Below, piece by piece: positions 4,299 through 26,490 of a stretch of DNA of 64,000 nucleotides (position 1 is the first letter of the stretch; each line of letters begins with the position of its first letter). The notes beneath the pieces are model-generated. The model made no database searches. It had not been told where the DNA came from and saw nothing but the letters and a program-made list of their open reading frames with translations. Origin of the DNA: a virus; IMG/VR virus record IMGVR_UViG_3300033233_000009, positions 32,001 through 96,000 of that record. One strand, 5' to 3'. The position numbers and the translations under genes are program-made.

Positions 4299-5339
4299 AT
4301 GTCCTACGGAATCCCGAATCCATACGTCGCGACAACGCACCCGTACCCCTCTCCCGCCACAGGCGGAAAGGGTGGTAGCTGGATCCGCCCCGTACACACG
4401 TTTCCTTACATGCGGTCCGTCCAGAGCGTATTCCTCCCCAGTCATTTCAACGACGGCAACCCGGCGCTCCGCGGGCTCGGTGACGTGAACGCCGCGAACG
4501 GCGTGTTCGGCACGTCGCAGGGTGGCGGCGGCGTGTTCGGGCCGTCGCTGTACGGGCTCGGGGACACAGGCGAGGACATCGACGCCATCGCGGCGTTCAT
4601 CCTGAACAGTCGCACCACCTCGCCGGCTGCCTTCGACGTCCAGACCCACTTCCGCGCCTGGTACAACGGGCTGTACTTCTGGCAGAAGGACGACGACGCG
4701 AAGGCGAAAGCAGAGAACTACAGGAGACAGTTCATCGACGCGAACGCGGTCGTCAGCAAGGCTACGGCGCCGACCAGCACCGCCCCGGCGCCGTCGTTCA
4801 TGCCGATGATCAACGACCCCAACGCGCCGGTCGCGACGAAGGGCCCGACTGCGCCTGCGCTCACGGGCCAGGCCAGTGGCCAGAGTGGCGACCCGCGCGT
4901 GAGCGAGCTTCAGGGCTACCTGAACCGTGTGCTCAAGACGGCGGGGCTGACCGCGCTTGACCAGGATGGCAAGCTCGGCGCGAAGGGCTGCGGCGCCATC
5001 GCGTGGTACCGCGGGCCGGGACGCTCCCTGGCAAGCGCGAGCACCGCGGCGGCGATCGACGCGAACCTCGGTGCGATGGGCGCGATCTACGCCTCGGTCT
5101 GCGCGGTCAAGGGCTCGACCGCGCCGGGCGGCGGGGGCGCCACGACGGTGAAGGCGCCTTCCGTGTACGTGGCGACGCCTCCGGTGGCGACGCCTCCGGT
5201 GGCGACGCCGCCCGTGGCACCTCCGCCGGAGGAGCCCGCGAAGGCGAGCGCCATGGGCGCGGGCACGTGGGCGATGATCGGTGGCGGATTGCTTGCCGTC
5301 GGGCTCGCGGTCGTGGGAAAGAAGAAGGGCTGGTTCTGA
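4299..5339 (+). CDS. Putative virion membrane protein with peptidoglycan-binding-like domain and C-terminal TM anchor
   Basis: ELQGYLN..DGKLGAKGC; TM WAMIGGGLLAVGLAVVG followed by KKK; GLG motifs. Confidence 0.65.
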   Translation: MSYGIPNPYVATTHPYPSPATGGKGGSWIRPVHTFPYMRSVQSVFLPSHFNDGNPALRGLGDVNAANGVFGTSQGGGGVFGPSLYGLGDTGEDIDAIAAFILNSRTTSPAAFDVQTHFRAWYNGLYFWQKDDDAKAKAENYRRQFIDANAVVSKATAPTSTAPAPSFMPMINDPNAPVATKGPTAPALTGQASGQSGDPRVSELQGYLNRVLKTAGLTALDQDGKLGAKGCGAIAWYRGPGRSLASASTAAAIDANLGAMGAIYASVCAVKGSTAPGGGGATTVKAPSVYVATPPVATPPVATPPVAPPPEEPAKASAMGAGTWAMIGGGLLAVGLAVVGKKKGWF

Positions 5340-5343
5340 TCCC

Positions 5344-7047
5344 ATGTCCCTCGGTTCACTCGGCAGCAGCAGGCGGCGGTCCAGCACGAACGGCGTGCTG
5401 GGCGGTCACCTCGGTGCCGTGCCGAGCCAGTGGACCGCGGATTCGCGCGTCAAGGCGCTGCAAGCCGCGCTGAACACGCAGATGGCGGCGGCGGGCTGCA
5501 CCACCGCGCTGACGGCCGACGGGCTGATCGGGCCCGGGACGTGCGGCGCCCTCGCCTGGTCGAAGGCGACCGGCGCGCCCCCGAGCGCGTACCAGACCTA
5601 CGCGGCGGACTTCGACGGGGGCTGCAAGGCGTTCACGCCCAAGGCGCCGGCCTGCCCGGCGGTCACTGCCACGGCGCCTGCCACCACCACCACCACCACC
5701 ACGGCGACGGCACCGGCGGGCACGTACGGCCTGCCCTTCGCGCTCGGAGTGAAGGACCCGACGGTGCTGAAGTGGCAGTACATGCTGAACACCGAGCTGG
5801 ACGCGCGCGGGATCCCGACCGTGCCGGAGGACGGGGTGTTCAGTCTGGCGACGTGCGCGGGCTTCGGGGCGTTCGGGCGCTCTTACAACGAGGCGCCGAA
5901 CGAGCCGACGCCGGACGATACCTTCGCGGGCATCGTGGCGCAGTACCAGAAGGGCATCGTCGCCGCCTGCGCAGCCCTGGCGCAGCCCGCGACGACGACC
6001 GCGCCGCCGGCCACCACGACCACGACCACGACCGCGCCGCCTCCCGCTACCACGCCGTCGGCGAGCGCGAGCGACCTGATGCGCCAGCAGCAGACGATGC
6101 TCAACGCCTGGCTCGCGAGCGTCGGGTATCTACCGATCCCGGTGAGCGGCGTGTGGGACGGGCGGACCTGCGGCGCGGGGCAGCTACTCGCCAAGACCCT
6201 GCCCGACACCGACCCGACGAAGATCGCGCTGGCCGGCGTGCTGGCGAAGATCAAGCCGCTGCTCGGGATGCCGTGCGGCGTGACCGTGCAGCCGATCGCG
6301 CCCTCGCGACCGGCGGTCGCTCCGCCGTCGAGCGCGCAGATCCTCCAGATGCAGAAGCTGCTCAACGCCGAGGTGCTCCGGCCCGGCAGCTACCGGCTGC
6401 TCGCGGAGGACGGGAAGCTCTCGGCGGCGACATGCGGCGCGGCGAGCGACACCGCGGCGGCGGCGAGCATCGGCCGGATCCGCGTGTCGGCGACGCTCCA
6501 GGCCCTGCTCGACCACACGGGGCTGCTCCCGGGCTGCCTGCCGCTGAAGCCCTGGCAGTTCCCGCAGACGGCGACGCCGATCGTGGCGAGCCGTTCCGCG
6601 TCGCTGCCGCCGCTGAACCGCGACGGCGAGTGCGTGATCAACTTCGGGCAGAAGTACGCCGAGATCGGCCTGCTGCAACAGCAGATGAACGCCACGCTCG
6701 CGAGCAACGGCTACAAGCCGATCCCCGTCACGAGCGCGTGGGACGCGGCGACCTGCGGCGCGCTGTTCGAGCTGGGAGGGAAGTTCTCGCCGCGCTCGTC
6801 GAGCGGGTGCCCGCACGCCTACTCGGTGCCGCTCACGTGCCCGACGGTGGCGCGACCGGCCAAGGTGGTGGTGGCGCCGCCGCCCACGAAGCTGCCGGTG
6901 CCGCCTCCCCCTCCGCTCGCTCCGGTGAAGCGGGCCAGCATGGCGCTCCCGCTCGGCATCGCCGCCCTGGTCGGCATCGGAGCGCTCGTCTACGCGAAGA
7001 AGAAGGGCCTCATCATGGCTGCGAAGAAGGCAACGGTGAAAGCATGA
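5344..7047 (+). CDS. Putative virion protein with about 5 Cys-containing peptidoglycan-binding-like repeats and C-terminal TM
   Basis: Repeated Q..LN...DGxxGxxTCGA units, Thr/Pro linkers, TM plus KKKG; start reassigned to ATG 5344. Confidence 0.65.
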   Translation: MSLGSLGSSRRRSSTNGVLGGHLGAVPSQWTADSRVKALQAALNTQMAAAGCTTALTADGLIGPGTCGALAWSKATGAPPSAYQTYAADFDGGCKAFTPKAPACPAVTATAPATTTTTTTATAPAGTYGLPFALGVKDPTVLKWQYMLNTELDARGIPTVPEDGVFSLATCAGFGAFGRSYNEAPNEPTPDDTFAGIVAQYQKGIVAACAALAQPATTTAPPATTTTTTTAPPPATTPSASASDLMRQQQTMLNAWLASVGYLPIPVSGVWDGRTCGAGQLLAKTLPDTDPTKIALAGVLAKIKPLLGMPCGVTVQPIAPSRPAVAPPSSAQILQMQKLLNAEVLRPGSYRLLAEDGKLSAATCGAASDTAAAASIGRIRVSATLQALLDHTGLLPGCLPLKPWQFPQTATPIVASRSASLPPLNRDGECVINFGQKYAEIGLLQQQMNATLASNGYKPIPVTSAWDAATCGALFELGGKFSPRSSSGCPHAYSVPLTCPTVARPAKVVVAPPPTKLPVPPPPPLAPVKRASMALPLGIAALVGIGALVYAKKKGLIMAAKKATVKA

Positions 7048-8003
7048 ACGGCATCCTCGGTAGCCCTACGGGGCTCGGCGTGTTCGCGGGCAGGCAGGGG
7101 CTCGGTGCGACCTACCCGTTCGGCAAGTACTCGGACGACACCAAGGCGTTGCAGCGCCAGGTGAACGCCTGGCTTGCGGCCACCGGCCTGGCCGTGGTCG
7201 CGGAGGACGGGCTGCTCGGGCAGCGCACGTGCGGCGCGCTTCGCAAGGCGAAGATGGAGGTCCCGAGCACGTGCAGTGGCTTCGTGGAGCCGACCCCGGG
7301 CTACTACCCCTGGAACAACTACAGCGCGGACACCAAGGCGTTGCAGGCCGTGCTCGCCGCCCGGTTCCCGAGCGTGAAGGTGGACGGTATCCTCGGGCCG
7401 CTGACGTGCGGCGCCGGCAAGGCTGCGGGGCGGTACCCCGCGACCTGCGAGAGCTTCACCCTCCCGGAGGGCGCGGTCGTCTCGGCCGGGCCGTCGGTGG
7501 CCCCCGCTCCCGCGGCGGCGCCCGGGAAGGCCGTGGACTGGGTGGCGCTGGCGGCGTACGCGGCGGCGGTCAAGGCGCAGAACGACAAGCGCGCGGCCGA
7601 CCTGCTCGCGTACGCGGCGGCGGTGAAGGCGGACAAGGACCGGCAGAACCTGCTCGCGTACGCGGCGGCGGTGAAGGCCGCGAACGACAAGAAGGCTGCC
7701 GACCTGCTCGCGTACGTGGCCGCGGTGAAGGCCGCGCAGGCTGCCAAGAAGCCCGCGCCGCGCCCGCCCGCTGCACGCGCGGTGACGGTGGCCAAGCCGA
7801 AGGTCAGCGCGGCCACGCCTGTCCCGCCGCCGCCGGCTCCTCCGCCGCCCGCGCCGGATCCGGCGCTGGAGCCCGCGCACGCCTCCGCGGAGATCGCGGA
7901 GGCCGGCATGAGCATGACCACCAAGCTCGCCCTCGGCGTAGGCGTCGTCGCGGTGGTAGGCTACATGGTGTTCTTCAGGAAGCCGTCGCCGAAGGCCGCG
8001 TGA
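7044..8003 (+). CDS. Putative virion protein with two PG-binding-like repeats, AYAAAVKA helical repeats and C-terminal TM
   Basis: YSxDTKALQ..DGxLGxxTCGA twice; ATG overlaps the upstream stop. Confidence 0.65.
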   Translation: MNGILGSPTGLGVFAGRQGLGATYPFGKYSDDTKALQRQVNAWLAATGLAVVAEDGLLGQRTCGALRKAKMEVPSTCSGFVEPTPGYYPWNNYSADTKALQAVLAARFPSVKVDGILGPLTCGAGKAAGRYPATCESFTLPEGAVVSAGPSVAPAPAAAPGKAVDWVALAAYAAAVKAQNDKRAADLLAYAAAVKADKDRQNLLAYAAAVKAANDKKAADLLAYVAAVKAAQAAKKPAPRPPAARAVTVAKPKVSAATPVPPPPAPPPPAPDPALEPAHASAEIAEAGMSMTTKLALGVGVVAVVGYMVFFRKPSPKAA

Positions 8004-8023
8004 TGCCGCGATAGGATCCCAAG

Positions 8024-8341
8024 ATGCGTAGAATTTATACCTCGACAGCGCACTTCCGCGCTCCGTACGACACCGCGAACATCAGCTTCGCCGGACTCGG
8101 CGTGCTCGGTTCGGATCACCGCGCGTACGACGCGAACCGATGGCCCGCGCGGCGGAGCTACTTCGACGTCTCGCAGTACCGCGCTCCGCTGCGTGCCGGC
8201 TACTACCAGTCGGGCGCGCTCCGCGGCGCCGAGGCACCGGAGGCGCAGGCAAGCATGACTGGCGCGCAGAAGTGGACGATCGTGGCGGTCATCCTCGGCT
8301 CCATCGCGCTCGGCGTCCTGGGCGACAAGCTGAAGGCGTGA
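8024..8341 (+). CDS. Small membrane protein with GLG motif and C-terminal TM
   Basis: WTIVAVILGSIALGVLG; internal HFRAPY/QYRAPL repeat. Confidence 0.6.
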   Translation: MRRIYTSTAHFRAPYDTANISFAGLGVLGSDHRAYDANRWPARRSYFDVSQYRAPLRAGYYQSGALRGAEAPEAQASMTGAQKWTIVAVILGSIALGVLGDKLKA

Positions 8342-8345
8342 GCCG

Positions 8346-8593: not shown

Positions 8594-8599
8594 AACCCG

Positions 8600-9145
8600 A
8601 TGCGAAGGCAAACAAGCGGGCTCGGTGTGCTGGGCGGGCCTGACGTGCTCGGTGGCGCGCTGGGCGACCAGGCGGAGGACATCGACACCATCGCGAAGTA
8701 TATGTCCGGTACGCCGTACCGGACGGAAGCCGCGCGGAAGATTCAGGACGAGTGGAAGGTCTGGCTCGACGGCGTGAGCTGGTGGGACAAGAACTACGAC
8801 CGGCCGACATACGACCACGCTCGGAACCTCCGCAACTCCTTCAACAAGGCCAACGCGACGACCGCAGCGGAGGCGGCGGCGGCGGAGCACGTCATCAAGA
8901 CCGGCATGACCACCGAGACGATGACGGGCGGCGCCTCGCGGATCACGTCGGGGGGCACCTTCTCGGAAAAGGACGGCGGCACCGTGGCGCTGCCGCTGTG
9001 GGCGAAGTTCGGCATCGGCGTGGCGATTGCCGGGCTCGGGATCTATGCGCTGCGCGAGCTGCGCCTGTTCGCCACGCTGTTCAAGAAGGCGCCGAAGACC
9101 GGGCACACGCCGAACCGCCGGTCACGCCGGAGGGCTCGCGCGTGA
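8600..9145 (+). CDS. Membrane protein sharing a domain with 4299-5339
   Basis: GDQAEDIDTIAKY..W..G..WW.K vs GDTGEDIDAIAAF..WYNGLYFWQK; TM plus basic tail. Confidence 0.65.
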   Translation: MRRQTSGLGVLGGPDVLGGALGDQAEDIDTIAKYMSGTPYRTEAARKIQDEWKVWLDGVSWWDKNYDRPTYDHARNLRNSFNKANATTAAEAAAAEHVIKTGMTTETMTGGASRITSGGTFSEKDGGTVALPLWAKFGIGVAIAGLGIYALRELRLFATLFKKAPKTGHTPNRRSRRRARA

Positions 9146-9585
9146 TCTACTCCCGCTGGCGCCCGGACACGGGCGGCTACGACTACTTCCAGTCCGCGGA
9201 ACGCCGTGGGCTCGGCGACGATCTGCCCGTGCCGAAGCTCTACGGGGGCACGGCCATCGGCGTGGCCAGCACCGACATCGGGCGCCCTGCGCCGGGTGCG
9301 CTGCGCCCCGCCGGCAGCGGGCCGGTGGCGAAGGGGTCAATTCTGCCGCTGTCGCGGCAGGGGCTGAGCAGCATCGACTGGATGGGGAGCGGCGGCGTGG
9401 TCGCGGGCGTGCTGTTCTTCGGGGCGCTGGCGGCGTTCGTCGCGGTGCCGGGTGCGGTCGGTGGGTACCTGACGGCCGCGGCGCTCAAGAAGGACAAGAA
9501 GAAGTGGGCGATCTACGGCGCGGTCGGCGCGCCCGTGGCGCTGTTCGGCTGGAACGCGGTCGAGAAGCTGCGGTTGCGGAAATGA
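9142..9585 (+). CDS. Membrane protein with 2-3 TM segments
   Basis: GTG overlaps the upstream stop; hydrophobic C-half; RRGLGDD. Confidence 0.6.
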   Translation: MIYSRWRPDTGGYDYFQSAERRGLGDDLPVPKLYGGTAIGVASTDIGRPAPGALRPAGSGPVAKGSILPLSRQGLSSIDWMGSGGVVAGVLFFGALAAFVAVPGAVGGYLTAAALKKDKKKWAIYGAVGAPVALFGWNAVEKLRLRK

Positions 9586-10166: not shown

Positions 10167-12590
10167 ATGGCGTACGCGAGCACGCGCGGGTTCGGCCTGG
10201 GCGCCGAGGCATCGGCCGGCGCGTCGCTGGCGACGCCCGGATTGCCCACGGTCGCGTGGGCGCCGCCGCAGGTGCGGTTCAACGCGGCCGACTACCAGCC
10301 CCAGACATTCGCGCAGGCGCAGTTTGCGAAGTGGTCGCACTCGTCGATGCAGGCGGACATCGAGAAGGGCCGCGCGCAGCTTTCCGCCAAGCTCGGTGTG
10401 ACGCTCCCGAAGCTGCCGGCGATGGGGCAATCGGAGGTCACGAGCTGGACGGCGGCGTACGCGCTGGCGCACGGCGTCCCCACGAACTTCGAGGACGGGG
10501 CGAAGATGGTGACCGCGTTCGCGCACGCGCAGGCTGCGAAGCTGGGCGTGCCGCCGGAGTGGATCGCGGCGGCCGACGTGCTGATGCACCCGCCGACGAC
10601 GACGGCAGAAGCCACCGCGCTCGTCGCGGACGTCGGCAAGGCGTATTTCGCGAAGTACGGCATCGCGCTCCTCCAGAACGAGCTGATGAGCGTCAGCACG
10701 AACCTCGCGATGGTGACGCAGGCGATCCCGGTGGAGTTCGCGGTCGCCGGGTTCGACGCGCTGAAGGACGGCAAGCTGACGGGCGAGGAAATCGCCGGCA
10801 TCGCCGTGCAGGCGGCGGCGTACGCCTGCGGCATGCTCCTCCAGGGGATCGGGATCCCGGCGCCGCTCGGGGCGCTCATTGGAGGGGTGATTGCGGGGCA
10901 GCTCTCGGCGGTCGCGGACAACGTGATTCACGCGGACGACGCGGATACGCGCGCGCGCAAGGCCGCGTACGCCGCGCTCGACAAGCAGCGCGAGGCGCTG
11001 ATGACGGAATGCGCGAGCGCCGCCCAGGAGACGTGGAACAAGACGCAGGAGTACTGGGATCAGGTGCTCGGGCGCATCCAGGCGCTCCTCGACGTGCCGG
11101 CCATTGCCGCGCGGATCCGCGCGGCGGGAGGGATCCGGTACTACGGCCGCAACGTGGTCCAGCTCCCGGCCGGGGTCGTGCTGCCCGAGACCAGCAGCGT
11201 CGTGGCCAAGCGGTTTCGGGAGCCGGGCGACTGGGAGGCGTGGGCAAAGCAGGCCGAGGCGGACGCGAAGGCCGCAGAAGCAATCGCAAAGAAGCACTAC
11301 GGATCCAGAGACGCCGGCCCCTACATCGCCAAGGCGGGAGCGGCACGCAAGCGCGCAACCGATCTGGCCAAGAAGGCCGCGGAGCAGCCCAGGCTGCCGC
11401 TGTACGAGTACGGCTTCGACTGCCTGTGGTGGGAGGGACAGCTCGACCACCGGCAGGGCCAGCCGGTGCTGCCGCGGAACGCGCGCCCGTTTCCCGACGG
11501 CTGCCTCTACTACGGGCGCGTCCGACCCACCGGCGTGTGGGTGGGGAGTGAGCAGAAGCTCGACCCGGCGCAGTGGATGCAGGGCCCCTACTGGGTGGAT
11601 CCGAGCCGAGTCTGGGAGCGCTGCGCTGCGCGATCCTCCATGCGGTGGTACCCGTCGTTCCGGGCAGGGGACACCGACGAGTCGTGCAGCGCGGCGATGA
11701 AGGTCGCGGCCGAGTTCCGCTTCGACTTCACGCCCGATTATGAGACGCGCAAGATGAACGTGCGGCTCACTCCGTACACCGACCACCAGAGTGCGGTACG
11801 GACGAAGATCGTCACGATCACGCGGGGCGCGCTCGTGGACGGCGCGCCGAACGCACAGGCCGCGCTCCAGTTCTGGGGCGCGAAGCGGCCGACCTCGCCG
11901 GTGCTCTACTCGGACGGCTCCGATGCGTCGCAGTGGAAGCAGTTTGCCTACATCGACCCGGGCGCGATGGAGGTGCACAAGGTCGCCGGGAGCCTCACGG
12001 CGAAGCTGAACCTGCCGTTCGACTACTGCGACGTGAACCAGTGGATGGCGGCGGTGCAGACCGCGGCGGCGGCGTCGGCGCTCGTGGAGCAGGACATCGT
12101 CCGCACGGTGGCGTGGCAGGCCGGCGCGGAGGAGGCCCGGAGGGTCGCAGCCGACTGGCAGAAGCTCGCGGCGCTGACACCCGACCAGCAGCAGCAGCTC
12201 GTCGCCTACGCGAAGGCGGCGCAGACGGAGAAGGAGAACTGGGCGAAGCTCGCGGCGCTGACGCCGGAGCAGCAACGCCAGCTCGTCGCGTACGCTGCGC
12301 AGCAGGCCGAGCAGCGGCGCCAGCTCCTCGCCTACGCGGCGGCGCTGAAGGCCAAGCAGCAGTCGGACATGATCGCCGCGCGGGCCAACCGGGCCCTGCT
12401 CCAGGCGAAGGCGCTCGGGGCGGCGCGGGCGGCGTCGGGCGCGTACGCCGTGGCGCTGAAGGCCCGGCTCGGCTACCAGGCGGCGCAGATGAGCCAGCGG
12501 ACGACGCTACTCCTGGGCGGCCTGGCGATCGGGGCCTTCCTGCTGTGGAAGGTCGCTACGGGCAGCAAGCGGGCCCGACCGAAAACTTGA
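10167..12590 (+). CDS. Large (807 aa) membrane-associated protein, candidate entry/DNA-delivery protein
   Basis: Gly-rich hydrophobic stretch GMLLQGIGIPAPLGALIGGVIAG, coiled-coil segments, C-terminal TM plus basic tail. Confidence 0.55.
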   Translation: MAYASTRGFGLGAEASAGASLATPGLPTVAWAPPQVRFNAADYQPQTFAQAQFAKWSHSSMQADIEKGRAQLSAKLGVTLPKLPAMGQSEVTSWTAAYALAHGVPTNFEDGAKMVTAFAHAQAAKLGVPPEWIAAADVLMHPPTTTAEATALVADVGKAYFAKYGIALLQNELMSVSTNLAMVTQAIPVEFAVAGFDALKDGKLTGEEIAGIAVQAAAYACGMLLQGIGIPAPLGALIGGVIAGQLSAVADNVIHADDADTRARKAAYAALDKQREALMTECASAAQETWNKTQEYWDQVLGRIQALLDVPAIAARIRAAGGIRYYGRNVVQLPAGVVLPETSSVVAKRFREPGDWEAWAKQAEADAKAAEAIAKKHYGSRDAGPYIAKAGAARKRATDLAKKAAEQPRLPLYEYGFDCLWWEGQLDHRQGQPVLPRNARPFPDGCLYYGRVRPTGVWVGSEQKLDPAQWMQGPYWVDPSRVWERCAARSSMRWYPSFRAGDTDESCSAAMKVAAEFRFDFTPDYETRKMNVRLTPYTDHQSAVRTKIVTITRGALVDGAPNAQAALQFWGAKRPTSPVLYSDGSDASQWKQFAYIDPGAMEVHKVAGSLTAKLNLPFDYCDVNQWMAAVQTAAAASALVEQDIVRTVAWQAGAEEARRVAADWQKLAALTPDQQQQLVAYAKAAQTEKENWAKLAALTPEQQRQLVAYAAQQAEQRRQLLAYAAALKAKQQSDMIAARANRALLQAKALGAARAASGAYAVALKARLGYQAAQMSQRTTLLLGGLAIGAFLLWKVATGSKRARPKT

Positions 12591-12623: not shown

Positions 12624-13217
12624 ATGAGCTACCACGTGAACCCGATCGCCCGGAGCCTGCCTCGCCTCGGCGCTCGGTCCGTCGGAGGGCTCGGTACGGT
12701 GGCCCCGCCTCCGGTGCTCCACGCGGCGCCGCGCCCGCTCACCGCCGCGGACTGGGCGAACATCGCGGCCTACGCGAAGGCGGTCAAGGCGGCCGAGGCA
12801 GCGAAGGTGACCGCGCCGCCCCCGCCCACGACCGTGCCGGTGGTGTCGCTCGCGACGCTGGTCAGCAAGCTCCAAGCGAAGGGCGCGACCCCCGACGAGG
12901 TCGGCTACTTCCAGGCGTGCATGACCGACAAGCTCGGCGACAAGCCGCCCACGGCGTGCGAAACGGAGGCTCGGAGCCTGGCAAAGCTCTCGGCGGAGGG
13001 GCTCGCGTTCTACAAGTCGTGCGCGAGCCAGCGCGCCGCGGACATGCCGGTCCGCACGCAGCACTCCGCGTGCTACGGCGAGGCGCTCAAGATCGCGAGC
13101 GGCGGCGCGGCGCCGGATGGCGGTGGCGCGACGACGACCGCCGGCATGGGCACCACGAAGTGGCTGCTGATCGGCGGCGTCGCGGTGGCGCTCTACTTCC
13201 TCGTGATCCGCAGGTAG
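12624..13217 (+). CDS. Cys-containing membrane-anchored protein
   Basis: PPVLHAA.RPLTA.DWANI module, 4 Cys, C-terminal TM. Confidence 0.6.
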   Translation: MSYHVNPIARSLPRLGARSVGGLGTVAPPPVLHAAPRPLTAADWANIAAYAKAVKAAEAAKVTAPPPPTTVPVVSLATLVSKLQAKGATPDEVGYFQACMTDKLGDKPPTACETEARSLAKLSAEGLAFYKSCASQRAADMPVRTQHSACYGEALKIASGGAAPDGGGATTTAGMGTTKWLLIGGVAVALYFLVIRR

Positions 13218-15899: not shown

Positions 15900-16100
15900 A
15901 TTCCCTCGCGCTCCAGGCGCGGTGTCCTCCGGCAACGGAGGCCCGCGCCTTGGGCGCGTAGAGAGCACCCGTTCCCTTCCCCAGCTCCGCCCAGGAGGTT
16001 CCGCAACAGCGGTTCCCTGGGCTTCGGCCGTTGAGAGCCCAAGAGGGAATTTCCCCTCGAACGAGGAACGTAGCCTCGCAAAAAACGGTAAGGCTCATAC
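15900..16100 (+). ncRNA. Structured leader or intergenic RNA upstream of the putative capsid gene
   Basis: Nested stems 15907-15958 capped by a GCAA tetraloop; stem 16013-16049; further small hairpins. Confidence 0.4.
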
Positions 16101-16109
16101 GGAGTTACC

Positions 16110-16868: not shown

Positions 16869-16901
16869 CCAAGTACTGCGCGGCACGGAAGGGACACGGG
16901 A

Positions 16902-16938
16902 AGTGGTCGCGGGGCCTTCGACGGGCCTCGCGACCACT
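16902..16938 (+). terminator. 15-bp GC hairpin after the capsid gene, containing 16 nt identical to the CRISPR repeat
   Basis: agtggtcgcggggcc-ttcgacg-ggcctcgcgaccact; no U-tract, so termination is uncertain. Confidence 0.5.
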
Positions 16939-17009
16939 CGCTCCCGAGCGGGGGCAGGTCTGATGCGTACGGCGCGCTCCGCCGGTACTCCCTTGTGGAG
17001 GTAGCTACG

Positions 17010-17972: not shown

Positions 17973-17986
17973 GAAAGGGCCCCACG

Positions 17987-18625
17987 ATGTCGTACCGCGC
18001 AACGGGTGCTGTTCCTCCGGTTCTCCACGCGGCGCAGCGGCCGCTCACCGCCCAGGACTGGGCGAACATTTCGCTGTACGCCAAGGCCGTGAAGGACGCG
18101 CAGCGGCAGCGCCGCATGGGCGGCGAGCGGGCGATGCACGGCATGGGCGACCTGGGGCTTGGGCTCCTCCCCGCCCCCGCGCCCGTTCCGATGCCGATGC
18201 CGACGCCGACGCCGGTGGCCACCTCCGTGGCCGACTGCGTGCGGCACAACACGCAGAAACTGGCCACGCTTCCGACCCTCCGGCTGGGAGCGCGCGGCGA
18301 GGCGGTGGGCGGCTGGCAGGAGGAGCTGCGACACCTCGGGGCCGCCATCCGGGTGGACAGCGTGTTCGGTCCGGCCACCCGGGCGGTGACGGTGGCCTGG
18401 CAGCGCAAGCACGGTCTGGTACCGGACGGCGTGGTCGGCCCGCGGAGCTGGGCCACGATGATCCAGGTGCACTGCGCCCGGCGGGCACAGATGGATGCCA
18501 TGCGGGCGACGCACGGCATGGGCGCCGAGGCGGAGCTGTCCAAGCCTTCCGTCGTGCTGCCCGCCTTCGTCTACGGGGCCGCGGTGGGTCTCGGGCTGGG
18601 GTACGTCTTCTTCGCGTCGAGGTAG
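17987..18625 (+). CDS. Peptidoglycan-binding domain protein with C-terminal TM
   Basis: LRLGARGEAV..WQ..L...VDSVFGPAT..WQRKHGLVPDGVVGPRSW (PG_binding_1 pattern). Confidence 0.8.
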   Translation: MSYRATGAVPPVLHAAQRPLTAQDWANISLYAKAVKDAQRQRRMGGERAMHGMGDLGLGLLPAPAPVPMPMPTPTPVATSVADCVRHNTQKLATLPTLRLGARGEAVGGWQEELRHLGAAIRVDSVFGPATRAVTVAWQRKHGLVPDGVVGPRSWATMIQVHCARRAQMDAMRATHGMGAEAELSKPSVVLPAFVYGAAVGLGLGYVFFASR

Positions 18626-18637
18626 GAGCACACCGAG

Positions 18638-19381
18638 ATGGACGCGCAGAAATTCGTCGAGCAGTGCGTCGCCAAGGTGCAGCGGCAGCCGGCGATCCGG
18701 CTCGGTGCCCGAGGCGACGCGGTGCGCGTGTGGCAGACCCTGCTGAACCGGGAAATCGGCCAGGCGCTTCGGGTCGATGGGGTGTTCGGTCCGAACACCC
18801 ACCACGGGACGGTGGCATTTCAGCGCAAGGCCGGCCTGCGCCCGGACGGCGTGGTCGGATCGAAAACGTGGGCGGCCGCATCGGTGGCTCCCTGCTACGC
18901 CCAGGCGGTCGTGCAGCAGCGCGGCGCGGCGGCAGGCAAGGGCGGGGGCCAGGCGGCGCGTCAGGCCGCGCAGGGCCTCGGCCGCGGCGGCGGTGGGCAT
19001 CACGGCGGTGGCGGTCACCACGGCGGCGGCGGTCATGGCGGTGGGGGACACCACGGCGGCGGCGGTCGCTTCTGGGGTGGGGGCGGCGGCGGCGCGTACT
19101 TCGCCCCGGGCGGCGGCTACCCGTACATCGTCGAGGACTACGGGCCGACGCTGCTCGTGGTGGGCGACGACTGCGCGAACCGCGTGCGGAACTCCTGCTA
19201 CCAGCAGTTCAGCCAGAACCCCGCTCAGCAGGCGGGCTGCACGCAGGCCGGTCTGGCCCGGTGCGGCACGGCGGGCCTCGGGGCGATGGACTTCACCTTC
19301 TCGGTGCTCGACCCGAAAAGCATGGTTCTCGGGGCCGTGCTCGGCCTCACGGTCGGGGCCGTGCTTTTCGGGCGGAAGTGA
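18638..19381 (+). CDS. Peptidoglycan-binding domain protein with GGGHH repeats and C-terminal TM
   Basis: IRLGARGDAVRVWQ..VDGVFGPNT..FQRKAGLRPDGVVGSKTW; paralog of the previous gene. Confidence 0.8.
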   Translation: MDAQKFVEQCVAKVQRQPAIRLGARGDAVRVWQTLLNREIGQALRVDGVFGPNTHHGTVAFQRKAGLRPDGVVGSKTWAAASVAPCYAQAVVQQRGAAAGKGGGQAARQAAQGLGRGGGGHHGGGGHHGGGGHGGGGHHGGGGRFWGGGGGGAYFAPGGGYPYIVEDYGPTLLVVGDDCANRVRNSCYQQFSQNPAQQAGCTQAGLARCGTAGLGAMDFTFSVLDPKSMVLGAVLGLTVGAVLFGRK

Positions 19382-19396
19382 GCGAAGATCAGGCGC

Positions 19397-20275
19397 ATGC
19401 AGCCCAGCTTCCGCGAACAGATGCTCGCCTCGTTCCAGGCGGTGAATCCCCACATGGCGCTGGGCGCTGCGCCGCCGCAGCCGGAGCCGGCCGCGAGCTT
19501 CAAGGAGACGAGCATCAACAAGGTGGTCCAGGCGGGCGGCGAGGTTGCGGCGCGCTTCATGCACCCGACGTTCCTGCCGTTCGAGAAGCTGTACCGGAAG
19601 TTCCCGCAGCAGGGCGTGTTCACGGCGACGCCACAAAACAACTTCGTGCTGGAGCTGGGGTCGTTCCGGGTGCCGCAGCAGATGGCGTTCGCCCTGGTGG
19701 ACTACCGCTTCGACCTGTACCGGCTGTCAGGGGCGGCAGCGGGCGACTGGGTGCCGCTGGAGGAGCGGCGCCTGTCGGGCCAGATCGGCTACGACGTGCT
19801 GATCGCTGACTACCGCAAGGCAAACCTGTCGTACGAGCTGGACCCGACGGAAATCCAGGCGGCGAAGGAGGCGAGCGAGCAGCCGCCGAGCCCCGGCATC
19901 ATCGCGGCGGGCGCGGAGTTCAACAACAATTTCCCGCCGCAGATCGGCAACCCGCTGTTCCCGCCGAGCGCGGCGCCGTTCGGCGCGAGCCTCACCGACT
20001 TCGCGAACGCGCGCGCGGCCGCTGCGTCGTCGCCGGGTGGCCCCGGGCTGTCGCTCATGCCGCAGCGCCACGAGCGGCTCGGGCCGCTGCCGCTGCCCTT
20101 CACGCTGATGGTGCGCGAGAACCAGCGCGTGACGTTCAAGGCCGTCGTGTTCCGGCCGGTGCCGATCCCGCTGGCGTTCTTCGAGGTGGACGTGACCGGC
20201 GTGCTCATGCCGGCGAACGTCGCCGATTCGCTGCTCGCCGCGATGGCGCCCTACGTGCCGCAGGGGAGGCACTGA
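19397..20275 (+). CDS. Beta-rich protein, possible third jelly-roll protein
   Basis: FRVPQQMAF, PFTLMVRENQRVTFKAVV, FFEVDVTGVLM resemble the patterns in 16110 and 17010. Confidence 0.4.
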   Translation: MQPSFREQMLASFQAVNPHMALGAAPPQPEPAASFKETSINKVVQAGGEVAARFMHPTFLPFEKLYRKFPQQGVFTATPQNNFVLELGSFRVPQQMAFALVDYRFDLYRLSGAAAGDWVPLEERRLSGQIGYDVLIADYRKANLSYELDPTEIQAAKEASEQPPSPGIIAAGAEFNNNFPPQIGNPLFPPSAAPFGASLTDFANARAAAASSPGGPGLSLMPQRHERLGPLPLPFTLMVRENQRVTFKAVVFRPVPIPLAFFEVDVTGVLMPANVADSLLAAMAPYVPQGRH

Positions 20276-20447
20276 TGCCGAGCGGGCTCCAGTCTACGGG
20301 CGGCGACGCTCTCGGGTGCTTTCTTCTTCGTCGTCGGCAGCACCGTGACGCCTCGTGCGCTCCCGCAACTCAAAAAGTGGGAGTCAGCGAGATCGTCCTC
20401 GAAACGAGGGTGTCGCCTCCCGTTCTATTCCGGCGGGAGGTGCGACC

Positions 20448-21215
20448 GTGAACGGCAGCCCCGCGTACTACCGTCCGCAGGCGGCACTGGCGCTGGCAAC
20501 CGACAGCGGCGACGCCGCGCTCGGCAAGGGGCAGAGCCTCGCGGTCGAGACGATGCTGCGCACCGTGCGATCGAGCCATGCGTTCGATCCGCTCGGCGTC
20601 TACGTGCCGTGGGCACGGCAGAAGGGCGGTGTCACCTGGGAGACGATCGCGGAGCCGGACCACGACCTCGTGCTCTACCCGATCAGCGCCGCGACGGTCG
20701 ATCGGGTGAACGCGGCGTCCTACGGCCACGAGCTGCCGTGGGTCGGCGTGGTCGCCGAGGCACCGACGAACAGCCGGACGGCTGACGAGGTGTGGGACGC
20801 GACGCGGTACGATCTGTTCGCGGTCGAGGGGCTGTACGACGTGAACGATGCGCGGCCGGCGCCGCGGATCTGTTTCCTCTACTGGGCAAAGCTCCACGAT
20901 GACGTGGGCGGCGGGCGAGCGTCGCTCGATGCGGTCGCGCAGCGGCTTGGAGGGCGACTCGTGTTCCCGATGCACGTGCCGGTCACCGATCCGCGCCGGC
21001 CGCCGTCGCTACCCTTCCAGATGGTGCTGAACGCGCAGCTTGCCGGCCCGGAGGCGTTGCCCGAGCTGGCAGGCTTCGGCGCGGAGGCGAGCGCAGCAGC
21101 GGCAGCCGCGGCACCGCCCGCGACCCGGAGCGCGCTGCCGTGGCTGGCGCTCGCCGCCGCGGCAGGCGGCGCCGTGTGGCTCGCGCTGCGCGGCGGGAAG
21201 CGAAGGAAGCGGTGA
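20448..21215 (+). CDS. Hypothetical protein with C-terminal TM and basic tail
   Basis: GGAGG before GTG 20448; LPWLALAAAAGGAVWLAL-RGGKRRKR. Confidence 0.6.
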   Translation: MNGSPAYYRPQAALALATDSGDAALGKGQSLAVETMLRTVRSSHAFDPLGVYVPWARQKGGVTWETIAEPDHDLVLYPISAATVDRVNAASYGHELPWVGVVAEAPTNSRTADEVWDATRYDLFAVEGLYDVNDARPAPRICFLYWAKLHDDVGGGRASLDAVAQRLGGRLVFPMHVPVTDPRRPPSLPFQMVLNAQLAGPEALPELAGFGAEASAAAAAAAPPATRSALPWLALAAAAGGAVWLALRGGKRRKR

Positions 21216-21218: not shown

Positions 21219-21449
21219 ATGCCGACCTTCATGGCGACGCCGACCGACGTGCTGAAGCTGGTGCACACCGCACGGAAGCTCGACGCGAATCCGTTTTCGC
21301 TCGCGGGCAAGCTCGTGGGGCTCGGCGCGGACGAGCAGCGGGCGGGCATCCCGGCGTGGGCCTGGGTGCTCGCGGGAGTGGGGGTCGGGGTGGCACTCGG
21401 CTGGAAGCTCGCGCCGACCGCGCGGGCGCGACTCAAGGCGTTCTCCTGA
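21219..21449 (+). CDS. Small membrane protein
   Basis: TM AWAWVLAGVGVGVALGW. Confidence 0.6.
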   Translation: MPTFMATPTDVLKLVHTARKLDANPFSLAGKLVGLGADEQRAGIPAWAWVLAGVGVGVALGWKLAPTARARLKAFS

Positions 21450-21955: not shown

Positions 21956-22360
21956 ATGTCGCTCAATCAGATGGCGTACCAGTCCGGCGTGCTCGGGGCC
22001 CTGCCCCCGGCTCCCGCCTTCCGCTCGGGCTCGCTCGGCGTGCTCGGCTTCGTGCCGCCGGTGTCCGGTGCGGTGCGCTCGGGCTCGCTCGGCATCCTGG
22101 GGGCGCCCCCACCGAGCGGCGCCGTGAAGTCCGGCGTGCTCGGCACGCTCGGTGGCGGCCCGCCTCCCTCCGGTGCGGTGCGCTCCGGCTCGCTCGGTGT
22201 ACTCGGCGAGTACTTCGCGCAGAACGGCCTCGGTGCCGATGCGGTCGTGATGCCCACCGCGGTGGGGCCGAAGCCCGCCATGGCGACCCTCACCATGGCC
22301 ATCGCTGGCCTGGGCGCGGTCGCCGCGATCTGGTGGGCCATGACCCGCCGGCACGCCTGA
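21956..22360 (+). CDS. Repetitive membrane protein (SGAVRSGSLG repeats, GEYFAQNGLG, C-terminal TM); carries the self-protospacer
   Basis: Internal repeats; shares a DNA motif with the core protein gene. Confidence 0.7.
   Translation: MSLNQMAYQSGVLGALPPAPAFRSGSLGVLGFVPPVSGAVRSGSLGILGAPPPSGAVKSGVLGTLGGGPPPSGAVRSGSLGVLGEYFAQNGLGADAVVMPTAVGPKPAMATLTMAIAGLGAVAAIWWAMTRRHA
22153..22188 (+). other. Protospacer identical to CRISPR spacer 5
   Basis: tggcggcccgcctccctccggtgcggtgcgctccgg at both 22153-22188 and 33554-33589 (36/36). Confidence 0.95.
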
Positions 22361-22406: not shown

Positions 22407-22444
22407 CCGAAAACTGGCGTGAGGGTTGGACCCAGGTGTAGCCT
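22407..22444 (+). promoter_or_regulatory. Promoter CCGAAAAC-TGGCGT-N18-TAGCCT
   Basis: Recurrent upstream element and -10. Confidence 0.5.
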
Positions 22445-22456
22445 GCGAGGCACAGC

Positions 22457-23077
22457 ATGGCGGACCTGCTCGAAACCCTCGGCCGCGTCGTCCTGACCTT
22501 CCAGTCCGCTCCGCAGGGCGTGCCGGGCAGGATCTGGGACGAGCTGCGTCCGTGGTTCGGGCGGCTCGTGGTGAGCGCGGCGCCGAAGTGGCTACCGCGC
22601 CTGTCGTTCGGCTTCGCGTGCTCGGTGCCGCATCCGAACGGCGCGGCCTGTCCGCGGCCCGCCATCGCGGCCTGCGATGTGTGCGGCCAGCCCTGCTGCC
22701 TCGACCACGCGCGCATCGACCAGTACGGCGACGCGATCTGCTACCTCTGCTGCATCGAGGCGATCCGGCGGAAGCAGGCCGAGCGCGCCGGGGAGCCAGC
22801 GCCGGGGCACGGTCACGCCCAGGGGGGCCATGCCGGGCACGGGCATGGGCCGCAGCCGACCCCTGAAAAGGAGCTGGCCTGGGCCCGCAAGACGCTCGGC
22901 GTGAAGAAGGGCGCGGACTGGGAAGAAGTGCGCGCGGCGCACCGTAGACTCTCCGCGAAGTGGCACCCCGATCGCCATCAGGGCGCGGGCTACCAGGCAG
23001 CCGAGGACCGGTTCAAGCAGGTACAGAGAGCGTTCGACTTGCTCACGAAGGAACGTGAGCGAAAGGAAGCGGCGTGA
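22457..23077 (+). CDS. Zinc-finger plus C-terminal J-domain (DnaJ-like) protein
   Basis: CxxC motifs; ARKTLGV..EVRAAHRRLSAKWHPDRH..RFKQVQRAFDLL. Confidence 0.85.
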   Translation: MADLLETLGRVVLTFQSAPQGVPGRIWDELRPWFGRLVVSAAPKWLPRLSFGFACSVPHPNGAACPRPAIAACDVCGQPCCLDHARIDQYGDAICYLCCIEAIRRKQAERAGEPAPGHGHAQGGHAGHGHGPQPTPEKELAWARKTLGVKKGADWEEVRAAHRRLSAKWHPDRHQGAGYQAAEDRFKQVQRAFDLLTKERERKEAA

Positions 23078-23798: not shown

Positions 23799-23801
23799 GC
23801 C

Positions 23802-24581: not shown

Positions 24582-24604
24582 GAGGCGGGAAGGCAAGCAA
24601 CCCC

Positions 24605-25276
24605 ATGTCATACGATCGCGTGAACCCGACCTACTACCAGACGTTCCAGCAGGACACGCCCTTCCACGCCGGATCGGAGGGCTGGACGAGGTCGCCCTGG
24701 CCGACCTGGGGCGACAACCCGAACCTCGCGGGTCGGCGCACGCTCGCGACCGACGGGCTCGGTGGCTGCGGGTGCGCGGGAGCGTCCGGGCTCGGCACCG
24801 TCCTGGCAATCTCGGGGCTCGGCACCGTCGCGGTGACCAAGCCGGCGCCGTACTCCGCGCCCGCTCGGGCGACCATGGGCAACCCGGCGTCGGAGAACTG
24901 CGTCGCGAAGGGCGGCACGGTCCAGGTCGTCGAGACGCCAGCGGGGCAGAGCGGGATCTGCGTGTTGCCGAACGGCACCCGGTGCGAGGAGTGGGCGCTG
25001 TTCCGCGGCCAGTGCGGCCCGGCGGCGGCGAGCATGTTCCCTCCCATCCCCGAGCAGCCTGCCTGGAAGAAGGCGCTCAGCATGGCGGCGGGGGCCGCCT
25101 GCGCCTACCACGGCTTCAAGCGGAACGAGTCGGCAGGCTGGGCGGTCGCGTGGGCCGCGTTCGGCAGCACGATCCCCCTTCTGGCGCTCCCCATTGCGCT
25201 CGCGCAGGGCTTCGGGAAGCCGGCGCGGAAGCCCGCGATGGCAGCGAACAGGCGGCGCGGTCGCGCCCGGCGCTGA
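24605..25276 (+). CDS. DUF333-containing membrane protein
   Basis: MGNPASENCVAKGG..GICVLPNGTRCEEWALFRGQC; C-terminal TMs; GLG motifs. Confidence 0.75.
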   Translation: MSYDRVNPTYYQTFQQDTPFHAGSEGWTRSPWPTWGDNPNLAGRRTLATDGLGGCGCAGASGLGTVLAISGLGTVAVTKPAPYSAPARATMGNPASENCVAKGGTVQVVETPAGQSGICVLPNGTRCEEWALFRGQCGPAAASMFPPIPEQPAWKKALSMAAGAACAYHGFKRNESAGWAVAWAAFGSTIPLLALPIALAQGFGKPARKPAMAANRRRGRARR

Positions 25277-25282
25277 GCCCGA

Positions 25283-25320
25283 CCGGAAACTTGCCGGCCC
25301 CCGACCGGGGGGCGTAGCCT
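25283..25320 (+). promoter_or_regulatory. Promoter CCGGAAAC-TTGCCG-N18-TAGCCT (leaderless)
   Basis: ATG 6 nt after -10; spacer contains a hairpin. Confidence 0.5.
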
Positions 25321-25326
25321 CGGGGC

Positions 25327-26490
25327 ATGGACTACTACCGCGTCGGCTACGCACAGTCCCCGCTCGTTCCCATGGGGATGGGCTCCTCGCCCGACGGCCT
25401 CGGCGCGTACTTCCAGACGACGTACCAGCAGCCGATCCGCGCGGTGCACGGCGGCACGAGCACGGTGGCGGCCTACCAGCCGATCGATGGGCTCGGCGCG
25501 TACTTCGCGACGACGTACCAGCAGCCGATCCGTCCGGCGCAAGGCGGCGCGAGCATCATCGCGGACTACAAGCCGATCGACGGGCTCGGGGAGCTGACGC
25601 CCGCCCAGCGCAGCGCAGTCGCCTGGGCCTCGCTCCTCGGCTTCGTCGGGTGGGGCAGCGGGCTCCTGGCGCGGGGCCCCGTCTACGCCCGCAAGCGCGG
25701 CCCGTGGGTACCGCTGGCCGGCGCGGCGGCCGGCGTGGCGGTGGGCTACGCGATCGGCACGCGGCGGGCTACCGCCCCGCCTGCGCCCACGGCTGGCCTT
25801 GGCGCGTGCCTCCCGTGCATGGCAGCGGCCGCGGGCCTCGGTGCGGATGCGGTGCCGGCGGCGACGCCCTCCGCACTCAGCAAGCCATGGGTCAAGGTCG
25901 CGCTCGGTGTCGGCGCCGTCACGCTCGCCTGGTACACCGTGCCGGCGTTCCGCAAGCTGTGGGGTCCCGGTGGCGCGCTCGCGAAGAACAAGCGGCACCG
26001 GCGGAACGCGCACACGGGCGGACCCGACGATCACGTTTACGCGCCAAGCGGGATGCGTGGCTGGGATGCCTGCGCGAGGTGCGGTTACGCCCGCGGACAG
26101 CACCTCACTGCTGCCGAGCTAAAGCGACTCCGCTCGCTCACGCCGAACCGCCGCCGCAGGCACCGGAAGAACGCGAAGTGGTCGGGCAAGGCGAAGCGGA
26201 GCCTGCCGGACACCAGCTTCCTCTACGTTGCGCCCGGCGGCCACGCGCGCATCGAGGGCGGCAAGAAGGTCACCATCCCGCGGAGCCTGCGGAAGTTCCC
26301 GTACCGCACGGCGGCGGGCAACATCGACCTGCCGCACCTGCGGAACGCCATCGCGCGCATCCCGCAGTCGAACCTGCCGGAGAGCCAGCGCACGCTGCTC
26401 CAGGCGAAGGCCCGCGCCATCCTCGCCGAGCACGGCGGGTACAAGCGCGCGCGCAAGGCGGCGGGCGGCGTGCTCCGACAGGCGGCGTGA
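25327..26490 (+). CDS. Modular membrane protein: DGLGAYF repeats, TMs, basic C-terminal phage-type domain
   Basis: 2x DGLGAYFxTTYQQPIR; LPDTSF..RKFPY..DLPHLRNAIAR. Confidence 0.65.
   Translation: MDYYRVGYAQSPLVPMGMGSSPDGLGAYFQTTYQQPIRAVHGGTSTVAAYQPIDGLGAYFATTYQQPIRPAQGGASIIADYKPIDGLGELTPAQRSAVAWASLLGFVGWGSGLLARGPVYARKRGPWVPLAGAAAGVAVGYAIGTRRATAPPAPTAGLGACLPCMAAAAGLGADAVPAATPSALSKPWVKVALGVGAVTLAWYTVPAFRKLWGPGGALAKNKRHRRNAHTGGPDDHVYAPSGMRGWDACARCGYARGQHLTAAELKRLRSLTPNRRRRHRKNAKWSGKAKRSLPDTSFLYVAPGGHARIEGGKKVTIPRSLRKFPYRTAAGNIDLPHLRNAIARIPQSNLPESQRTLLQAKARAILAEHGGYKRARKAAGGVLRQAA

Follow-up and report, generated by a model that had tools for sequence, protein, structure and literature searches.

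A 64,000-base stretch of the viral IMG/VR record IMGVR_UViG_3300033233_000009 (the window; bases 32001-96000 of a record of 124,597 bases, referred to below as G000, with a CheckV completeness estimate of 69%) contains a run of orphan genes whose products share a short motif, G-(L/M/F)-G, which we call the tag. The tag is a protein-level signal, restricted to the probable particle module of this virus. This run of orphan genes, which we refer to as the block, occupies window positions 4299-27359 and extends upstream of the window to G000:C1:27987. The block is probably the particle module of an undescribed lineage of viruses with genomes of 95-180 kb; together with the membrane proteins that it encodes, it points most simply to an uncultured bacterial virus that would have no tail and would contain a membrane. 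Our preferred but tentative reading, to which we give somewhat less than an even chance, is that G-(L/M/F)-G serves as an assembly tag that is read by a common partner, most likely a jelly-roll lattice, in particle formation.

Enrichment of the motif

The window has a G+C content of 70% and ~105 genes, all located on the + strand according to the third-position G+C frame plot and a codon-based gene caller. For the 28 genes of positions 4299-27360, the number of G[LMF]G triplets was compared with an expectation obtained from per-protein shuffles. We found 44 copies against 9.7 expected (z 10.6), a count reached by none of 300 shuffles, and for GLG alone the corresponding figures were 30 and 6.0. 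Thus, the alternative considered in the earlier note on this DNA, that Gly/Leu composition explains GLG, is ruled out. The control triplets were flat in the block (G[IV]G, 10 vs 7.9 expected; GAG, 8 vs 12.2; G[ST]G, 6 vs 8.4; A[LMF]A, 27 vs 23.2), and the count of GGG was likewise above expectation (25 vs 9.6). In the remaining 175 genes of the record, G[LMF]G showed no clear excess (39 vs 30.0, with 28 of 300 shuffles reaching the observed number).

At the DNA level, GGN-CTN-GGN occurs in the block 33 times in frame and 1 and 9 times in the other two frames, and 6 in-frame cases were found in 65 kb of other + strand genes. The codons at the tag sites vary, and DNA is common there to three genes only (genome gene 48, g015 and g024). 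The in-frame bias and the varied codons led us to reject a DNA-level repeat as the cause of the enrichment. The sharing previously noticed between 15421-15514 and 22205-22230 was borne out as an exact 26-base string: positions 22205-22230 recur at 15430, 15457 and 15484 (span 15430-15509), within a 27-base tandem repeat. Among the block proteins, only four related pairs were detected at E<1e-3 (g004-g009, g004-g005, g013-g018 and g018-g019), and duplication or common descent therefore does not explain the recurrence of the tag.

The earlier note had reported the motif from at least 12 proteins of positions 4299-26490, mostly followed by D, A, E, T or V. Outside predicted helices (helices and signal peptides were read from Kyte-Doolittle hydropathy alone), 19 of the 27 genes of this span carry G[LMF]G, including g009 with its tag at the helix edge; all of the cited examples are present (in g004, g005, g006, g007, g012, g013, g015, g018, g021 and g030), and one of the five residues follows at 31 of the 43 sites, in 17 cases A. 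The family exceeds this span, since three more genes are located upstream (G000:C1:28561-30669) and g031 downstream (26553-27359).

Conservation of the tag in related viruses

Is the tag peculiar to this record, or is it kept in related viruses? The close relative G001, a complete genome of 179,401 bases with direct terminal repeats that is syntenic with G000, harbors the same block at its left end, immediately past the terminal repeat. There, 45 copies of G[LMF]G were observed against 9.8 expected (0/200 shuffles), while the rest of the genome contained 40 against 43.6. Further relatives were represented by 15 viral contigs of 56-67% G+C, in which the genes around the g017 homolog were analyzed with 200 shuffles each. 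The motif was enriched in 12 of the 15 loci, where no shuffle reached the observed count. Loci L017 and L018 gave identical counts and are probably one virus.

Comparison of orthologs showed different placements of the tag. In g012, it reads FGLGA at residues 8-10 in G000 and AGLGV at residue 25 in the G001 ortholog, and in g013, GGLGT at residue 22 in G000 corresponds to GFG at residue 3 and GLG at residue 11 in G001. Orthologs of g010 possess GLGDDLP, GIGDDLP or, in distant cases, NINDDLP, with the central hydrophobic residue kept. In the g022 family, G-L-G/S is kept in 12 of 12 aligned sequences; g021 orthologs, present in 13 of 15 relatives, start with LGAY[FY] followed by GLG; and g015 orthologs were identified in 11 of 15. 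As far as these orthologs go, the tag persists while its flanks and position drift.

Anatomy and position of the tag

Over 16 genomes, we identified 395 tag sites, of which 332 lie outside and 63 inside predicted helices. The logo of the 332 sites is [A/S]-G-[L 65%, M 17%, F 17%]-G-[A 24%, E 16%]-[Y 18%, D 11%]-[F 17%, P 13%], with Gln 2.7-fold enriched at position -4; the extended forms [A/S]-G-L-G-[A/E]-Y-F and G-L-G-[A/D/Q]-D-x-P are common. For the positional test, tandem copies were collapsed, giving 291 sites over the 16 genomes and 38 in G000. The first 30 residues contained 79 sites against 44.3 expected (0/1000), and the 30-residue stretch ahead of the C-terminal helix was not enriched in tags (27 vs 26.2; 465/1000). 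The earlier description of the motif as preceding domains holds only in part: the N-terminal bias is clear over 16 genomes and not in G000 alone, to which we return in the Discussion.

An M-[S/T]-[Y/F] start was found in 6 of 34 block proteins of G000 and in 3 of 169 proteins elsewhere (p 8e-4). Across the 16 genomes, 29 of the 41 proteins with this start carry a tag within the first 60 residues, compared with 81 of 365 others (Fisher p 8e-10), and 32 of the 41 possess a C-terminal helix. Often, no more than a few residues separate the tag from such a start.

Tags also form arrays. The g015 protein (13861-15891; 676 aa) consists of Arg-rich repeats (residues 1-400), two or three hydrophobic helices and an acidic C-terminal region, which contains GFG sites and the 9-aa array NGLGEYFAQ x4 (nt 15421-15514; NGLGE three times plus NGLGA, the copies numbering 4-5 and spaced 9 aa). 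In g024 (21956-22360; 134 aa), five SG(S/V)LG(V/I/T)LG repeats and GEYFAQNGLGAD are followed by a helix and TRRHA, so that the protein is tags plus anchor and nothing else; its nt 22205-22230 are common with g015. The g030 protein (25327-26490; 387 aa) has 31-residue repeats with DGLGAYF at residues 24 and 55 and DGLGEL at residue 86, three to four hydrophobic helices, and 40 K/R in the C-terminal 182 aa. Some tags are located at residues 2-6 (MTNGLGEYF, and MLGAYFGS in relatives), and the relatives encode proteins of 62-136 residues made of tags, one helix and a K/R end, with nothing more.

Membrane anchors and topology

Among the 19 carriers of positions 4299-26490, 14 end in a hydrophobic helix and a K/R tail, whereas g015 and g030 have internal helices and g016, g017 and g026 are soluble. 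Of the 34 block proteins of G000, 17 clearly end in one hydrophobic helix and a tail that contains 2-11 K/R and 0-1 D/E. Over the 16 genomes, a C-terminal helix is present in 185 of 406 block proteins, being the sole helix in 156 of the 185, and the tag lies upstream of the helix in 114 of them. The mean net charge of these 185 proteins is +2.23 in the tail and +0.23 in the 15 residues preceding the helix. In agreement with the earlier observation that no signal peptide is visible, no hydrophobic stretch was seen by Kyte-Doolittle scanning in the first 40 residues of the anchored proteins, and over the 16 genomes, an N-terminal hydrophobic stretch that could be a signal peptide was detected in only 3 of the 185. 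Judged by hydropathy, the 17 clear cases of G000, and over the 16 genomes the 156 proteins with a sole helix, have the features of bacterial tail-anchored proteins: a single helix that lies within ~30 residues of the C-terminal end, with a signal peptide lacking.

According to the positive-inside rule, the basic tails would stay on the cytoplasmic or cis side of the membrane, which would place the large N-terminal parts on the opposite side without a signal peptide. Judged from charge alone, the topology of the anchored proteins would be N-out, and g030 agrees with this on the condition that the membrane is crossed by three of its four hydrophobic stretches. The basic tails, the 400 Arg-rich residues of g015 and the C-terminal 40 K/R of g030 would be natural DNA binders.

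Two of the block genes deserve mention here. The N-terminal 400 residues of g015 (13861-15060) contain three Arg-rich repeats of ~60 residues (HRRNFSAKQRAAALRNLRKARAARKHRPN...) joined to membrane helices, and the protein looks like a membrane-tethered DNA condenser. The product of g025 (22457-23077; 206 aa) combines a Cys-rich N-terminal half with a DnaJ (J) domain (Pfam E 7.9e-14) and is found in 12 of 15 relatives; it may possibly recruit host Hsp70 to handle the anchored proteins post-translationally.

A Transglut_core enzyme at the head of the block

Upstream of the window and directly before the first tagged gene, a gene at G000:C1:27987-28532 encodes a protein matching Pfam Transglut_core (E 1.3e-7, above the curated cut-off). 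In G001, the enzyme is the second gene past the terminal repeat, and it was found in all five further relatives searched, with 41-63% identity, on the same strand and 12-16 kb upstream of the g017 homolog; it stands at the block head in G000 and in 6 of 6 relatives examined. A Cys-His-Asp triad (D107-C108-D109, H141 and D158) is invariant in 7 of 7 sequences. All seven homologs match Transglut_core and no peptidase family model, including that of C93 (BTLCP), at E<=5, and no PDB sequence was matched by the enzyme at E<=0.5. The enzyme may act as a protease, as a transglutaminase or as an amidase. Membership in the LapG/BTLCP family (peptidase C93) is unsupported by sequence: the Cys-His-Asp triad is there, but the family model gives no match.

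The search for a viral cysteine protease that the earlier note had recommended thus yielded a candidate. The link it drew to the proteases of adenovirus, poxvirus and African swine fever virus (ASFV) did not hold, since the enzyme comes from none of those families and the motif does not fit their site consensus.

Candidate capsid proteins and the virus lineage

The adjacent and highly conserved g016 and g017 look like jelly-roll capsid proteins. The g016 product (16110-16868; 252 aa) is a candidate small jelly-roll capsid protein, and that of g017 (17010-17972; 320 aa) is a candidate large capsid protein with an N-terminal helical hairpin and then a beta-rich body; g020 (19397-20275; 292 aa), soluble and untagged, is the third universal core protein of the block. 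Orthologs of all three were identified in 15 of 15 relatives, with identities of 50-93% for g016 and 34-89% for g017. For g017, more than 569 homologs exist in public data, none of them named, on contigs of up to ~138 kb. The best matches of the g016 model are the capsid proteins of Helvetiavirae-like viruses, which are icosahedral, have an internal membrane and possess two single-jelly-roll capsid proteins (the P23-77, HCIV-1, HHIV-2 and SPV1 group). The AlphaFold2 (AF2) model of g017 has a predicted local distance difference test score (pLDDT) of 47.6, and its fold matches are therefore weak. A complex prediction for g016, g017 and residues 505-565 of g015 had a score of 0.00, which is neither support nor evidence against.

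In common with the P23-77, HCIV-1, HHIV-2 and SPV1 group, the block has adjacent genes for a candidate small and a candidate large capsid protein and many small membrane proteins in the module. It differs in the genome size of 95-180 kb, in that no FtsK/A32-type ATPase was recognised, and in the lack of sequence similarity. A genome size of ~30 kb is given for sphaerolipoviruses in the abstract of PMC12643093. Neither Pfam nor PHROGs revealed an FtsK/HerA (A32-like) packaging ATPase in G000 or in the G001-specific genes scanned, and g002 is therefore a candidate for a genome packaging role. This gene of the block (1813-3405) encodes a YifB/ComM-type AAA+ ATPase (Mg_chelatase E 7e-50) and is preceded by the gene of a 1027-aa orphan (window positions 5-1759), the start of which lies upstream of the window; in G001, the counterparts of the two are fused into one protein of 1060 aa.

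Pfam scans covered the 105 window genes at E<=0.01 and 93 further G000 genes at E<=1e-4. The families recognised with Pfam and PHROGs belong to replication, nucleotide metabolism, methylases, glycosyltransferases, HNH endonucleases and an M15 endolysin. The window and the rest of G000 gave no recognisable terminase, portal, HK97 capsid or tail gene, a lack of matches that is not in itself proof; Terminase_6N was not found in the complete G001, and there was no structural PHROG match among its 39 largest specific genes. The ESM Atlas labels g017 neighbors as Uroviricota, and we rejected a tailed-phage reading, because no tailed-phage hallmark family was found in these scans. The lineage is widespread, and marker-based tools file it under tailed phages despite this lack of hallmark genes. 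A DNA search of a phage collection with positions 15900-20300 gave no match. The host is hinted at by one match in a Pseudomonadota metagenome-assembled genome (a 122.7-kb contig) and by one homolog labeled Gemmatimonadales, neither of which settles it. In the excerpts of the literature consulted, no description was found of such a tag or of jelly-roll phages this large.

Other genes of the block

The remaining block genes are given in their order in the window. The g004 product (4299-5339; 346 aa) carries RGLGD at residue 59, YGLGD at residue 86 and a C-terminal helix (residues 324-340) followed by KKKGWF; its residues 87-145 match g009 with 34% identity over 61 aa. Weak peptidoglycan-binding repeats, AGFGA at residue 173, a C-terminal helix and a tail with 6 K/R make up g005 (5344-7047; 567 aa). 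The g006 protein (7044-8003; 319 aa), in which the QGLGA tag occurs, has N-terminal tags at residues 10 and 19, AYAAAVKA repeats and a C-terminal helix followed by RKPSPKAA, and g007 (8024-8341; 105 aa) has AGLGV at residue 24 and a C-terminal helix. For g009 (8600-9145), a start at ATG 8600 gives MRRQTSGLGVLGG (the gene caller used GTG 8627), and the helix is followed by a 36-aa tail with 11 K/R. RGLGDDLPVP is found at residue 23 of g010 (9142-9585; 147 aa). The g012 protein (10167-12590; 807 aa) begins with MAYASTRGFGLGAE and has a C-terminal helix at residues 781-797, then TGSKRARPKT. In g013 (12624-13217; 197 aa), which has an MSY start, AGMGT at residue 174 is located directly before the C-terminal helix, and the protein ends in RR.

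Past the candidate capsid genes, g018 (17987-18625; 212 aa) has an MSY start, HGMGD at residue 52, HGMGA at residue 177, a PG_binding_1 domain and a C-terminal helix, and g019 (18638-19381; 247 aa) has PG_binding_1, AGLGA at residue 213 and a C-terminal helix followed by RK. These two adjacent, tail-anchored proteins (17987-19381) contain PG_binding_1 without a recognisable catalytic domain. A conserved globular domain, AGFGA at residue 209, a C-terminal helix and a tail with 6 K/R are present in g021 (20448-21215; 255 aa), and GLGADEQRAGIPAWAW directly precedes the helix in g022 (21219-21449; 76 aa). The g029 protein (24605-25276; 223 aa) has an MSY start, tags at residues 51, 62 and 71, DUF333, a helix and a 23-aa tail with 9 K/R. 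The last block gene is g031 (268 aa), with a C-terminal helix and then SKRKAA. The block ends at g032 (27485-28078), which encodes an M15 peptidase endolysin with an N-terminal hydrophobic helix.

A second module, PPVLHAAP..T..DWA.I..YAKAVKA, is common to g013 (12690-12780), g018 (18000-18080) and genome gene 46 (G000:C1:28770-29000), and g013 and g018 are 83% identical over 23 residues. Repeats of the LLAYAAAVKA type were found in g006 (7600-7850), gene 46 and g012.

Several other features were also recorded. Between the ATPase gene and the first tagged gene of the window, an HNH endonuclease gene (3408-4295) has been inserted; G001 has no gene at this position, and its best match is a 117-aa protein encoded elsewhere. 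A 685-aa protein (31169-33226) with a weak Cas12f1-like TNB match (E 1e-4) and a transposase PHROG match is TnpB/Cas12f-like, and its gene is followed by ~1.2 kb without a called gene. Upstream of the window, the + strand genome is interrupted by a minus-strand island (G000:C1:22205-26057) with genes for a ParE-like toxin, an 806-aa N6 DNA methylase and a transposase of the IS1595 family. On the far side of the window, a DUF2201 VWA/metallopeptidase gene with an internal LAGLIDADG, possibly an intein or a nested endonuclease, adjoins a MoxR-like ATPase gene (G000:C1:118508-121033).

Discussion

What could one short tag do on so many otherwise different proteins? In the assembly-tag reading, the tags would sit on flexible arms on the membrane side away from the basic tails and domains, and a common partner, most likely the lattice of the jelly-roll proteins g016, g017 and g020, would read them during assembly. 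Dozens of unrelated anchored proteins, together with the lipid vesicle, would in this way be captured under the shell (sorting by capture), with tandem tag copies providing avidity. A later step might be trimming of the tag by the conserved Cys-His-Asp enzyme of the Transglut_core type; that the tags are cut at all is, in our estimate, possible but somewhat doubtful. The arrays, the tags at residues 2-6 and the tag-plus-anchor proteins fit multivalent binding better than cutting. The proposal of the earlier note, a signal dedicated to the sorting or maturation of the membrane proteins of the virion, is partly supported in that the signal is protein-level, confined to the block, carried by mostly unrelated proteins, kept in relatives and accompanied by a candidate enzyme; the enzyme family and the site consensus do not fit it.

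Several observations weigh against the assembly-tag reading. Three of the 15 relatives' loci display weak enrichment or none (L020, z 2.0; L021, z 2.3; L028, z 1.0), and G000 taken alone shows no significant bias toward the first 30 residues (7 vs 5.2; 241/1000). In the close clade of G000, the g021 tag has decayed to xLGxG, which makes the definition of the tag loose. The third helix of g015 is weak, and with only two helices the tags of this protein would come to lie on the same side as its Arg-rich domain. Moreover, a conserved protease-like enzyme needs a substrate, for which the tag is the obvious candidate, and this favors cleavage.

Cleavage as the sole function, the main rival, in which the Transglut_core enzyme would cut at or next to the tag and thereby remove leaders or free ectodomains, with no docking, we regard as unlikely. 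It would account for an enzyme with an invariant Cys-His-Asp triad (7/7) at the head of the block, for the enrichment of tags near N-termini, for the small or acidic residue that follows the tag at 31 of 43 sites and for the position of the g013, g018, g019, g021 and g024 tags, 2-17 residues ahead of the C-terminal helix. The cysteine proteases of adenovirus, poxvirus and ASFV, moreover, cut at Gly-containing sites. However, arrays with a spacing of 9 aa would yield nonapeptides, tags at residues 2-6 leave nothing worth removal, MLGAYF starts lack the first Gly, and the tiny tag-plus-anchor proteins would be destroyed. Nor are tags enriched within 30 residues upstream of the anchor, and the seven enzyme sequences match Transglut_core only, a fold that also serves transglutaminases and amidases.

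A version that joins docking and cutting would be a loading code of an undescribed 95-180 kb tailless, membrane-containing, single-jelly-roll lineage, in which the GLG arms first dock on the shell and a cysteine protease of transglutaminase fold then cuts them; taken whole, we consider it rather unlikely.

Could the tag instead direct export or insertion? An M[ST][YF]...GLG leader that sends proteins without signal peptides across or into the membrane, giving N-out and C-in, would explain the odd topology, and the leader is N-terminal and common to carriers. The frequency of C-terminal helices, the charge difference across them and the scarcity of N-terminal hydrophobic stretches reported above agree with such a function, as do the N-terminal peptidoglycan-binding and DUF333 domains, which in cells are active outside the cytoplasm. 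Phage lysins, however, have peptidoglycan-binding domains yet are not exported; tags also occur in the C-terminal region of g015, in g030 loops, in soluble g026 and in the capsid candidates; their distance from the start ranges from 3 to more than 60 residues; and no translocase gene was recognised in the block. We consider an export signal improbable.

In a similarly improbable explanation, the tag would be a cohesive low-complexity motif, with Gly-hydrophobic-Gly arms that stick to one another as a matrix between membrane and shell or act as handles for transglutaminase cross-linking, instead of binding a single defined site. Nucleoporin FG repeats, which stick to one another, provide the model. 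GVFG, GFG, GMG and GLG occur together in G/Q/N/S/A-rich stretches (g004 residues 60-90, g015 residues 500-676 and gene 48), which, with the enrichment of Gln at position -4 and a fold that includes true transglutaminases, would suit this idea. Many carriers, however, have a single tag beside a folded domain, the g022 tag lies in a conserved and probably structured stretch, and disorder is indicated by composition alone.

Chance, composition or a DNA-level repeat has next to no probability and is rejected: although Gly, Ala and Leu are common at 70% G+C, tandem repeats add to the count and three genes share the 26-base string, the shuffles never reach the count, related triplets are flat, the triplet keeps mostly to one frame with differing codons, 38 sites of G000 remain after tandem copies are collapsed, and relatives at 56-67% G+C are equally enriched.

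For the assembly-tag reading, the closest parallels in logic would be the dock-then-cut tags of vaccinia A17/D13/I7, adenovirus pVI/hexon/AVP and the phage T4 capsid-targeting sequence; as in those systems, one short tag is found on otherwise unrelated block proteins, with an N-terminal bias over 16 genomes. In vaccinia virus, the N-terminal arm of A17, with a small-residue/Gly motif near it, is thought to hold the D13 jelly-roll lattice on the viral membrane, and a virus-encoded cysteine protease belongs to the morphogenetic set, for which the Transglut_core enzyme is the candidate here. The present system differs in its bacterial host, in G-(L/M/F)-G instead of A-G-X, in a Transglut_core instead of an I7/Ulp1-like enzyme and in the number of carriers, of which there are dozens and not one or two. 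In adenovirus, the N-terminal peptide of pVI docks in the capsomer and is then cut off, and adenain (AVP) cuts at (M/I/L)XGG|X and (M/I/L)XGX|G. As in our case, several particle proteins bear Gly-containing motifs close to their termini, whereas here a hydrophobic residue stands between the two glycines and the carriers are membrane-anchored. Pfam revealed no protease of the adenain/Ulp1-like family in the 105 window genes and 93 further genes, Transglut_core being the sole protease-like match, and membership in the adenain system was rejected on this ground and on the different register of the motif.

Phage T4 marks its internal proteins with a capsid-targeting sequence that is removed by the prohead protease. 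The likeness lies in a short N-terminal tag common to unrelated proteins that loads them into the assembling particle; T4, however, is a tailed phage with an HK97 fold, a scaffold core, a serine protease and no membrane, and its tag is unrelated in sequence. Encapsulin cargo-loading peptides, in which Gly/Ser-flanked Leu/Ile motifs bind the shell interior, likewise tether cargo to a shell through Gly-flanked hydrophobic terminal peptides, and the SGSLGVLG repeats of g024 resemble them by analogy only, whereas the encapsulin shell has an HK97 fold, its cargo is soluble and the peptides are usually C-terminal. The C-terminal helix and K/R cluster of the 185 block proteins recall the substrates of sortase, exosortase and rhombosortase, with the difference that the tag is not enriched upstream of the helix and that candidate signal peptides are limited to 3 of 185. 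None of the sorting-domain or sortase models, including those of NCBIfam, was matched at E<=0.05 in 33 block proteins, and a C-terminal tripartite sorting signal was rejected because of this and the missing enrichment before the anchor.

Little is understood of how membrane-containing phages choose their vesicle proteins and tie the vesicle to the shell. Carried by dozens of unrelated proteins and encoded near candidate capsid proteins and a candidate protease, a tag that is simple, conserved and countable would make this question open to testing. The loading code that joins docking and cutting, if true, would mean a non-canonical membrane insertion, with large N-terminal domains brought to the non-basic side without a signal peptide. 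It would also be the counterpart, in a virus of bacteria, of maturation by A17/D13/I7 in vaccinia and by pVI/hexon/AVP in adenovirus, so that "dock, then cut" would no longer be a logic of large DNA viruses of eukaryotes only.

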